Source: a virus
Lineage: Duplodnaviria; Caudoviricetes
Reading direction: 5' to 3' (one strand)
Virus record (IMG/VR): IMGVR_UViG_3300032038_000041
Location: 1 to 64,000 of that record
Length of the DNA stretch: 64,000 bases
The notes under the pieces: generated by a model
Database searches by the model: none
What the model saw: the letters and a program-made list of their open reading frames with translations, nothing else
What the model was told of the DNA's origin: nothing
Made by a program: the position numbers and the translations under genes
Shown here: piece after piece, positions 11,735 through 64,000 of the stretch
Position numbering within the stretch: the stretch's first letter is position 1
How the letters are laid out: every line of letters starts with the position of its first letter

Positions 11735-12274
11735 TTAACTTATCCCATTAAAATCATTCATCGTTTTTTCTATTCCATTATAAATGAAACTAAAAATCAT
11801 CTGAACAATTCGTTCAAAATTTATTTCCTTAAGTTCCTCTTCAGGAAATTCTCCTAAAACAAATTCTAACTGTTCTCCCTTTACATAGTTGTTACCAAGA
11901 CCAATTTTTAGTCTAGAGTACTTATTATTTCCTAAACAAGTCTCGATACTCTTTAGTCCATTGTGTCCCCCTGCACTGCCCCCATGTTTAGCTTTTATTG
12001 TTCCAAGAGGAAGTGAGAGATCATCAACCACGATTAATACTCCTTCTAGGGGAACTTTTTCTCTTGCCATCCAGTAATGAACTGCTTCACCACTAGAATT
12101 CATATAAGTATCAGGTTTAAGAAATATTGTATCTCCTTTTCTAGCTACCCAACCATATTTCTCTTTTTTGAAGTCTAAACCTTCAATATGTTCCAATGCC
12201 AGGAAACCAGAATTATGTCTAGTCTTAAAATATTTTGGTTCTGGATTTCCAAGTCCTACTATTAAATGTCTCAT
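11735..12274 (-). CDS. pth: Peptidyl-tRNA hydrolase (Pth1)
   Basis: LIVGLGNP..Y..TRHN.GF, LKP.TYMN.SG, DDL, GGHNGLKS. Confidence 0.95.
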   Translation of the reverse strand: MRHLIVGLGNPEPKYFKTRHNSGFLALEHIEGLDFKKEKYGWVARKGDTIFLKPDTYMNSSGEAVHYWMAREKVPLEGVLIVVDDLSLPLGTIKAKHGGSAGGHNGLKSIETCLGNNKYSRLKIGLGNNYVKGEQLEFVLGEFPEEELKEINFERIVQMIFSFIYNGIEKTMNDFNGIS

Positions 12275-20966: not shown

Positions 20967-21037
20967 ACGACACTATAAAATTAAAATTACCAAATAAAAT
21001 TAGAAAGACATTCTTATATGTCTTCCATTTTCTTACG

Positions 21038-21109
21038 TGATCCTAGAGGAACTCGAATCCCCACAAATTGGTTTTAGAGACCAACGCATTACCTTTCTGC
21101 CATAGGACC
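21038..21109 (-). tRNA. Amber suppressor tRNA (CTA)
   Basis: GGTCCTA/TAGGATC; TTGGT-CTCTAAA-ACCAA; GGGGA-TTCGAGT-TCCTC; own promoter motif at 21119-21131. Confidence 0.9.
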
Positions 21110-63272: not shown

Positions 63273-63614
63273 ATGATCGATAAAGATAAAATAGTGGATG
63301 AACTTTTAGATATGAGAGATGAGTGTACTGGAAAAGGTATTATGTATATCATGATTCCAAATGAAGACCCAAATGATATTAGAATTGCAACACCAAAAAA
63401 TATATTTTCTCCTAGCGAATTAGATGACTTTATTAGATTCATGCTAGAACACTCTAATTTCTCAGGAAAAATAGAACAAGGATCACAAAATTCTGTATGG
63501 GACTTTCTCATTAAAAAAGTTGATAAAAAACAATTCTTTTCTTTTGACTTAATAGATGCTAAAATAGAATTAGTTGGAGTTTCTTTAAAAGATATTATTC
63601 AACGAAAACCTTAA
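63273..63614 (+). CDS. Hypothetical protein
   Basis: 113 aa. Confidence 0.55.
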   Translation: MIDKDKIVDELLDMRDECTGKGIMYIMIPNEDPNDIRIATPKNIFSPSELDDFIRFMLEHSNFSGKIEQGSQNSVWDFLIKKVDKKQFFSFDLIDAKIELVGVSLKDIIQRKP

Positions 63615-63623
63615 ATATGTATT

Positions 63624-63902
63624 ATGAAAAAGTCAAAAAGAACAAAAAGTAATGACCTGGCTAAAATCTTAAGAATGATTAGTCGGGATGAAGAACTTGA
63701 AAGAAATGACGGTAAATGGGTAGCTATGAACCGTGTATTCAAAGACAAGAAAAAGTACGATAGAAAAAAGATGAAAAAGGACTTAAGGGATGACCTTGGG
63801 TCCTTATCTTTTTTACAAAAATTAAAGGGAGAACTTAATCTCCCTTCTTTTTTATTATTTCGAAACCATGAATTCTTTTACCATTTTCTCTATACTGAAT
63901 AG
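63624..63902 (+). CDS. Small basic protein reading through a terminator (ArfA/BrfA-like candidate)
   Basis: FKDKKKYDRKK motif; no stop before hairpin 63777-63814. Confidence 0.5.
   Translation: MKKSKRTKSNDLAKILRMISRDEELERNDGKWVAMNRVFKDKKKYDRKKMKKDLRDDLGSLSFLQKLKGELNLPSFLLFRNHEFFYHFLYTE
63777..63814 (+). terminator. Intrinsic terminator inside ORF 63624
   Basis: AAGGACTTAAGG-GATGA-CCTTGGGTCCTT-ATCTTTTTT. Confidence 0.75.
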
Positions 63903-64000
63903 CTTTGACTTCAAACCACTGATTAATATCTTCGGCTTTGGCTGTTTTATTATTCCCTACCTGATTATAAATATTTTGAATACTAGCCTTTAAAGATATC
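63835..64000 (-). CDS. C-terminus of a paralogue of the 36390-38411 helicase-like protein
   Basis: IQNIYNQVGNNKTAKAEDINQWFEVK...ENGKRIHGFEIIKKKGD versus LQDLYNQIGYKKTAKASDLEQWFELK...ENGKRIHGFEIVKKK. Confidence 0.8.
   Translation of the reverse strand, partial: ISLKASIQNIYNQVGNNKTAKAEDINQWFEVKAIQYRENGKRIHGFEIIKKKGD

Follow-up and report, generated by a model that had tools for sequence, protein, structure and literature searches.

A small basic gene of Bacteroidales and their phages that runs into its terminator without a stop codon: a candidate ribosome rescue factor

Ribosome rescue factors that depend on a release factor (RF) have been described only in beta- and gammaproteobacteria (ArfA and ArfT) and in Bacillus (BrfA); all three are narrowly distributed, and none is recognisably related to another (PMC6881298). 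The brfA gene carries an intrinsic terminator inside its open reading frame (ORF), and trans-translation represses the protein that it encodes (PMC6881298). In ArfA, residues 31–48 fill the mRNA tunnel, and truncation at N47, eight residues after Y39, is tolerated while truncation at M40 is not (PMC5378476). Here we describe a small gene from a giant rumen phage, together with its family in phages and Bacteroidales; in the literature we found no description of this family, of its stop-less design, or of any RF-dependent rescue factor in Bacteroidota.

The window, by which we mean the whole 64,000-nt stretch that was analysed, covers the first 64 kb of an IMG/VR virus record of 94,411 bp (32.5% G+C). 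CheckV estimates the record as 25% complete, and it is therefore a fragment of a jumbo phage; the stretch is present in public runs from bovine, goat and sheep gut metagenomes. An earlier note on this DNA had likened a small gene close to the end of the window to arfA and brfA, and the features of that locus are as follows.

63273–63614, plus strand: upstream co-directional ORF of 113 aa, without a family match
63624–63902, plus strand: nominal small ORF, 92 codons followed by TAG (63900–63902)
63624–63776, plus strand: conserved coding core, codons 1–51 (alignments A1, A2 and A4)
63747–63767, plus strand: KKKYDRK motif, residues 42–48, with Y45 and R47 invariant in the family
63777–63814, plus strand: intrinsic terminator 1, in frame, with stem-loop 63777–63805 (12 pairs, 5 of them G-C) and T6 run 63809–63814
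63815–63899, plus strand: unconserved read-through tail, whose length, sequence and frame vary among relatives
63825–63856, both strands: terminator 2, two-way, with hairpin 63825–63846, upstream of the TAG and common to the convergent gene
63835–64000, minus strand: 3' end of the convergent 679-aa gene (whole gene 63835–65874)

The small ORF passes two in-frame hairpins with T-runs before it reaches its TAG, and no in-frame stop lies ahead of either; the sequence after the first hairpin is ATCTTTTTTA and that after the second is CTTTTTTATT. The earlier note's description of a strong terminator with no preceding stop is thus confirmed, as is its placing of the nominal TAG inside the convergent gene, 66 nt in. 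A transcript stopping at terminator 1 would give a peptide of about 62–64 residues. Terminator-like sites are locally dense: 3 fall within 1.5 kb, where shuffled sequence would give 0.5. The convergent gene's own TAA (63835–63837) sits in the loop of the two-way terminator hairpin.

We compared this arrangement with gene ends elsewhere in the 94-kb record, where 23 terminator-like sites lie behind an ORF. The stop precedes the stem at 15 of these, lies in the loop at 5 and is absent until past the hairpin at 3; two of these three read-through sites are the small gene's own hairpins, and the other is a hairpin mid-way in a 553-aa ORF. Because 20 of the 23 sites have a stop before the stem or in the loop, hairpin terminators are apparently in use at gene ends in this record, and the small gene seems to be the odd one out. 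The five stops within a stem-loop point to gene ends that are very tightly packed.

The small gene is a real, conserved protein-coding gene. A search of 5.8 billion proteins returned 172 relatives of 59–136 aa, similar to about residue 62 and unrelated beyond it, and the family profile retrieves 192 clusters at 50% identity. Differences among relatives fall at codon positions 1, 2 and 3 in the ratio 2571:1988:6789 (about 60% at third positions), and synonymous codon differences outnumber non-synonymous ones in the core. The core consists of a basic N-terminus, a predicted helix (residues 12–27), the segment ERNDGKWVAMNR and a basic tail; R21, Y45 and R47 are kept family-wide. The earlier note had counted about 50 very basic codons before the terminator, and 38% of the first 52 residues are indeed Lys or Arg (14 K, 6 R), including the segment ...FKDKKKYDRKKMKK. 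The GGQ motif is absent from the family, which has instead the basic tail with its invariant Tyr and Arg and 12–19 residues after the Tyr. An AlphaFold2 model (mean pLDDT 88) places a helix at residues 12–27, an extended segment at 28–46 and a second helix at 47–62.

The earlier note had proposed checking homologues for stops ahead of the terminator. We gathered the DNA of relatives from 1 genome locus, 11 viral loci and 74 metagenome loci. A hairpin followed by a T-run lies within the ORF, 10–35 nt past the KYxRK motif, in all 66 distinct loci, and six more divergent viral loci (about 35–45% identity) show the same layout, which brings the total to about 70 distinct loci. Every relative examined has a hairpin at the equivalent site (median ΔG −16.9 kcal/mol). 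In the 66 loci the stop comes past the T-run in all but one sequence type, about 25 nt behind it in the median case and never more than 273 nt; the exception, L009/L056, has its TAG within the T-run. No stop precedes the terminator in any of the roughly 70 loci. In L076, which lies outside the 66-locus set, a TAG falls directly at the end of the T-run. Searching specifically for the viral-contig loci of short, hydrophilic-tailed proteins (P0114, P0120, P0233, P0254 and others) returned only stop-less members. No hairpin-bearing lineage has acquired a stop before its hairpin, although AAA to TAA is a single step.

The hairpin is conserved as a structure. Across the 66 aligned sequences its 11-pair stem is 90.6% paired, against 29–57% when the partner columns are slid, and 105 stem cells are changed on both sides, against 6–25 when slid; none of 500 shuffles reaches these values. 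Such covariation points to selection on the hairpin.

The sequence past the T-run behaves quite differently from the core: it evolves neutrally. The window's tail ends ...SFLQKLKGELNLPS, and that of P0005 ends ...PFFTKIKGRT and a stop, being the +1 frame of the same DNA; as the frame of the tail differs even between strains that share at least 87% identity overall, the tail is not under selection. The first stop past the T-run comes after a median of 8.5 codons in frame, compared with 12 and 9 in the other two frames, and the tails are hydrophobic and of random length, reaching up to 91 codons past the T-run. A neutral tail is as expected if the message normally ends at the terminator. Among P0001–P0010, single-base length changes in and around the T-run (63809–63814) apparently shift the frame of the tail, and the resulting ORF calls among near-identical strains are 64, 71 and 91–107 aa. 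In one bacterial genome (L131:1486–2337, genome G507) the small ORF meets no stop for 286 codons and continues in frame into a putative D-Ala-D-Ala dipeptidase-type gene; P0117 (136 aa) has a similar run-on. Both are probably chance open frames, not fusions.

We next consider whether the family belongs to a described one. PF03889 (ArfA) gave no match at E ≤10 for the window protein and 34 relatives (an E. coli arfA control scored 89.7 bits), none at E ≤1 for 10 bacterial relatives, and none anywhere in the phage record. Profile–profile comparison by hhalign of alignments A2, A4 and A8 with ArfA (the best 120 ArfA homologues listed, all Enterobacteriaceae) aligned best on ArfA residues 22–48, with probability below 1% and E 0.14–0.28; the stretch so aligned is HKNKKKYDRKxxKK, and the ArfA part is its RF2-strand and tunnel-tail region. 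The bacterial branch described below aligned with ArfA over up to 21 columns at 48% identity, through HPLVYKRIHKSKK---VYDRKRKK (HPLxYxRIHKSKK-VYDRKRKK), with E about 0.15. The motif behind this likeness is short and of low complexity, and as ArfA homology is not statistically detectable, KKKYDRK and the KGKGSYxRK of ArfA share a motif resemblance only. The best local ArfA alignment, non-significant as it is, falls on KKKYDRK.

Other searches ended similarly. Single-sequence and profile searches of PDB chain sequences, which include the solved BrfA complexes, found no rescue factor; PHROGs and NCBIfam gave no match, nor did blastn and tblastn against 50,697 GenBank phage records, in which the short low-complexity query was possibly masked. 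Foldseek with the AlphaFold2 model found no match in the PDB, and the best hit of a VIA-align fold search reached Z 2.6; bS21 chains (Z 2.4) tied with unrelated rows there and are no evidence of kinship. We also set aside Pfam matches to MJ1010-like, LYRIC, MTRES1_C and others as sub-threshold noise. The ESM Atlas returned nothing beyond unnamed Bacteroidota clusters and one DUF7230 cluster at 0.90. Weak DUF7230 (PF23876) matches fall on the KKKYDRK stretch in the window protein and 7 of the 34 relatives, the best scoring 17.5 bits (E 0.0045) against a cut-off of 27 and covering profile positions 18–37 only; no protein in 401 Bacteroidota genomes exceeds that cut-off. With all family and fold searches negative or non-significant, membership of ArfA, BrfA or DUF7230 is not established. 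What the family has in common with ArfA and BrfA is the design and a short motif: the likeness claimed by the earlier note holds for the stop-less architecture, conserved with covariation in about 70 relatives; homology to either factor is not statistically detectable.

The sole bacterial match, in Segatella paludivivens, defined the order that we then searched with the family profile against whole genomes. Family copies occur in 33 of 401 Bacteroidales species genomes, one per genome, beside ordinary chromosomal neighbours (glutamate dehydrogenase, TonB, a TPP enzyme, a formate/nitrite transporter). The stop-less hairpin and T-run design is present in 20 of 30 bacterial loci, which are unrelated in their neighbours and in gene orientation; in the remaining 10 a plain stop comes 11–14 codons past the Tyr and there is no terminator. 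Gating by tmRNA is consequently not universal in the family, and ordinary stops probably occur in some phage relatives as well. Several of the plain-stop bacterial relatives end in YxRKxKH[KR]G, recalling the YMRKGKHG of ArfA. A database search with the profile of this sister clade returned 1,129 clusters, every named one a 'hypothetical protein', from Bacteroides, Dysgonomonas, Parabacteroides, Prevotella, Tannerellaceae and others.

When the short cores are placed in a midpoint-rooted tree, the chromosomal copies form a clade (support 0.97) apart from the one that contains the phage and metagenome sequences. Two Segatella-type copies fall within the latter, next to the gene of the window, in a tree that gives no direction of transfer. 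Of the phage-type copies in bacterial contigs, one (L105, genome G750) is flanked by genes for a HipA-like kinase and a HAD hydrolase; another (L106, genome G001, S. paludivivens) lies upstream of an ORF of the same size (202 aa). The two copies suggest gene exchange between these phages and Prevotellaceae, and support Prevotellaceae as the hosts.

If the family were a rescue factor, it might stand in for ArfB, and this prediction could have failed. Calling ArfB by NCBIfam NF006718 above its cut-off, we found it in none of the 33 carriers and in 131 of the 368 non-carriers among the 401 Bacteroidales genomes (Fisher p = 2e-6, a value that ignores kinship among genomes, many of which are incomplete). 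Within a single bacterial family of 81 genomes, ArfB is present in 0 of 24 carriers and 19 of 57 non-carriers; the bacterial family of G698, with 6 genomes, is too small to inform on ArfB. ArfB was thus never found together with the family's bacterial branch in either set, the prediction did not fail, and the pattern fits a rescue role.

The small gene's ATG lies 9 nt past the stop of the co-directional orf113, which in turn comes after nrdD and nrdG. A scan for sigma-70-type promoters upstream of the small gene found none, and the promoter motif proposed in the earlier note is not supported. Given the 9-nt spacing, co-transcription with nrdD-nrdG-orf113 is more likely. In most related phages (L002–L086) the small gene is the last of its operon, preceded in most by calcineurin-like phosphoesterases, a dNMP kinase, IMPDH/GMPR-like genes or nrdDG, and mostly faces a conserved convergent gene of 300–600 aa without a Pfam match. 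These neighbours belong to nucleotide metabolism and not to translation, which counts against a rescue function, and none of 20 related loci has a tRNA gene beside the small gene. Elsewhere the phage does encode translation functions: a full-length peptidyl-tRNA hydrolase (Pth; 11747–12265, minus strand; PF01195, E 9e-53) and 13 tRNA genes, among them one with a CTA anticodon (21037–21109, minus strand). The 94-kb record, about 25% of the phage, contains no RF-1 domain gene. Under the standard code most large ORFs remain intact despite the CTA-anticodon tRNA. The Pth and suppressor theme on which the earlier note drew is therefore present as genes; what we infer from it, that the small gene is linked to read-through stress through the UAG-reading tRNA, is plausible.

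Transcription of the region is visible in assembled contigs from four metatranscriptome runs in three studies. One RNA-library contig (63179–63757) spans orf113 and the small gene. Contigs over the small gene end at 63757, 63806 and 63827, and none extends past 63851; the one reaching 63827 goes beyond the T-run and counts against termination at the hairpin. The contig ends agree with a transcript end at the terminator, which is a weak hint, since 3' ends cannot be mapped from contigs and some DNA may have been carried over. In run X16 a contig matches the window to 63806 and continues with 31 letters unlike the window, the switch falling exactly at the terminator; this junction reflects either a strain with other downstream sequence or an assembly chimera.

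We propose that the family is a candidate tmRNA-gated, RF-dependent rescue factor of Bacteroidales that is also carried by their jumbo phages, a reading to which we give a probability of roughly 55%. Transcription of the operon would end at 63812–63816 or at the second terminator; as the mRNA would then end at an intrinsic terminator within the reading frame, the message would have no stop codon. A ribosome would stall at its 3' end, and as long as tmRNA-SmpB has spare capacity, the peptide of about 62–64 residues would be tagged and degraded. Once trans-translation is saturated, whether by phage or defence nucleases that cut mRNAs or by read-through with the phage's UAG-reading tRNA, the peptide would survive and accumulate. 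Its basic tail (KDKKKYDRKKMKK...) could then enter the vacant mRNA channel in a stalled ribosome, and the bound peptide would recruit a release factor to liberate the nascent chain, in the manner of ArfA and BrfA. The transcript end at the hairpin, the tagging by tmRNA, the ribosome binding and the release-factor recruitment are steps that we infer. A fuller version, for which we would not quite offer even odds, is that the family supplies the RF-dependent back-up for rescue so far missing in Bacteroidales, whether it arose independently or as a very remote offshoot of ArfA, and that it is gated for tmRNA by its in-frame terminator and replaces ArfB in carrier lineages; Prevotellaceae jumbo phages of the rumen and gut would have captured it to keep ribosomes free as infection, nucleases and the UAG-reading tRNA load the cell with non-stop complexes.

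The stop-less design could be real, and the peptide a sensor of tmRNA capacity, with a job different from RF-dependent rescue: perhaps that of a modulator binding ribosomes or RNA (acting in hibernation or translation bias), or of an anti-defence protein induced by nuclease-broken mRNAs. The evidence from the architecture is the same for this as for rescue, no homology to any known rescue factor is detectable, and the phage neighbours are not translation genes. Free ArfA is largely unstructured, while the AlphaFold2 model here is a confident helix–loop–helix. We nevertheless consider a non-rescue sensor unlikely: nothing in it would lead one to expect that the family and ArfB are distributed in a complementary way in bacteria, and the basic tail with its invariant YxRK is similar, in spacing too, to the ArfA tail that binds the tunnel.

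An explanation without regulatory meaning is that an ordinary small basic gene overlaps the operon terminator with its 3' end through genome compactness, enough transcripts reading through for translation to terminate normally at the next stop. The small gene is mostly operon-terminal, the convergent gene ends just past the hairpin and a single two-way terminator serves both; one RNA-library contig does reach 63827, and a third of the bacterial relatives have a plain stop. On the other hand, 20 of 23 terminator-like sites in the same record have their stop ahead of the stem or within the loop, and the overlap persists in about 70 phage and 20 bacterial loci with unrelated neighbours and orientations, the stem sequence having turned over fully. 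Compactness also leaves it odd that no hairpin-bearing lineage made the one-step change to a stop before the hairpin, and hydrophobic, random-length, frame-shifted tails would be a burden if routinely translated; we regard this account as distinctly improbable. That the locus holds no protein gene at all, the ORF being incidental to a conserved small RNA or attenuator, is hardly credible: the hairpin is strongly conserved and RNA-library contigs cover the region, yet the excess of third-position (about 60%) and synonymous differences, the 192 clusters retrieved by a protein profile, and the conservation of R21, Y45 and R47 as amino acids and not as bases all speak for a protein.

If the rescue reading is true, the family would be a fourth RF-dependent one with a self-limiting stop-less gene, in a dominant order of the gut and rumen, and the stop-less design would be a recurrent solution; scans for a terminator inside a conserved small ORF could then detect factors of this kind where homology is lacking. 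In the phage copies, viruses would carry rescue factors with expression wired to the tmRNA state of the host, which would extend the jumbo-phage translation toolkit of tRNAs, Pth and suppressor tRNA. Cultured carriers, among them Segatella paludivivens DSM 17968, Dysgonomonas mossii and Bacteroides gallinarum, allow a direct test of the hypothesis, and rescue pathways are being studied as targets for antibiotics.

Among known systems, BrfA (YqkK, the RF2-dependent factor of Bacillus subtilis) is likewise small and basic with a positively charged C-terminus, from an ORF of about 70 codons; it likewise has a rho-independent terminator in its coding region that leaves a product of about 62 residues from a non-stop mRNA, and likewise a narrow, patchy taxonomic range. 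It differs in that its sequence does not match the family's, that the family occurs in Bacteroidales and their phages and not in Bacillus, and that part of the family has ordinary stops. Breaking the stem of brfA abolishes its dependence on tmRNA, and compatibility of BrfA between species is low. ArfA (YhdL, PF03889) likewise has a stop-less message, a hairpin in the ORF and variable, unconserved read-through tails, so that its ORF calls also vary (69 to 110 aa at ≥80% identity among the matches listed), and likewise a Lys-rich stretch followed by Y-x-R-K-x-K(-H). By the ArfA truncation standard, the 12–19 residues past the Tyr in the family are long enough (PMC5378476). The two differ in the N-terminal half, a predicted amphipathic helix in the family and a hydrophobic minidomain in ArfA; in how the message is truncated, by RNase III in E. 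coli arfA whereas the T-run marks an intrinsic terminator here; and in phylum, ArfA belonging to beta- and gammaproteobacteria. ArfB (YaeJ), which is RF-independent, has a GGQ hydrolase domain and an ordinary stop, neither of which the stop-less members possess; it is the likely functional counterpart of the family's bacterial branch.

Two phage-borne groups are also close in character. The viral DUF7230 (PF23876) is likewise tiny and basic, with only 42 positions and without the N-terminal helix region. The gp30 of pelagiphage HTVC027P, another tiny basic phage-borne protein, has an ArfA domain, which the family does not. A phage-borne ArfA is not in itself new, because gp30 is already annotated as a true ArfA-domain gene (PMC12753301); the interest of the present finding lies mainly in the Bacteroidales clade and in its mutual exclusivity with ArfB.
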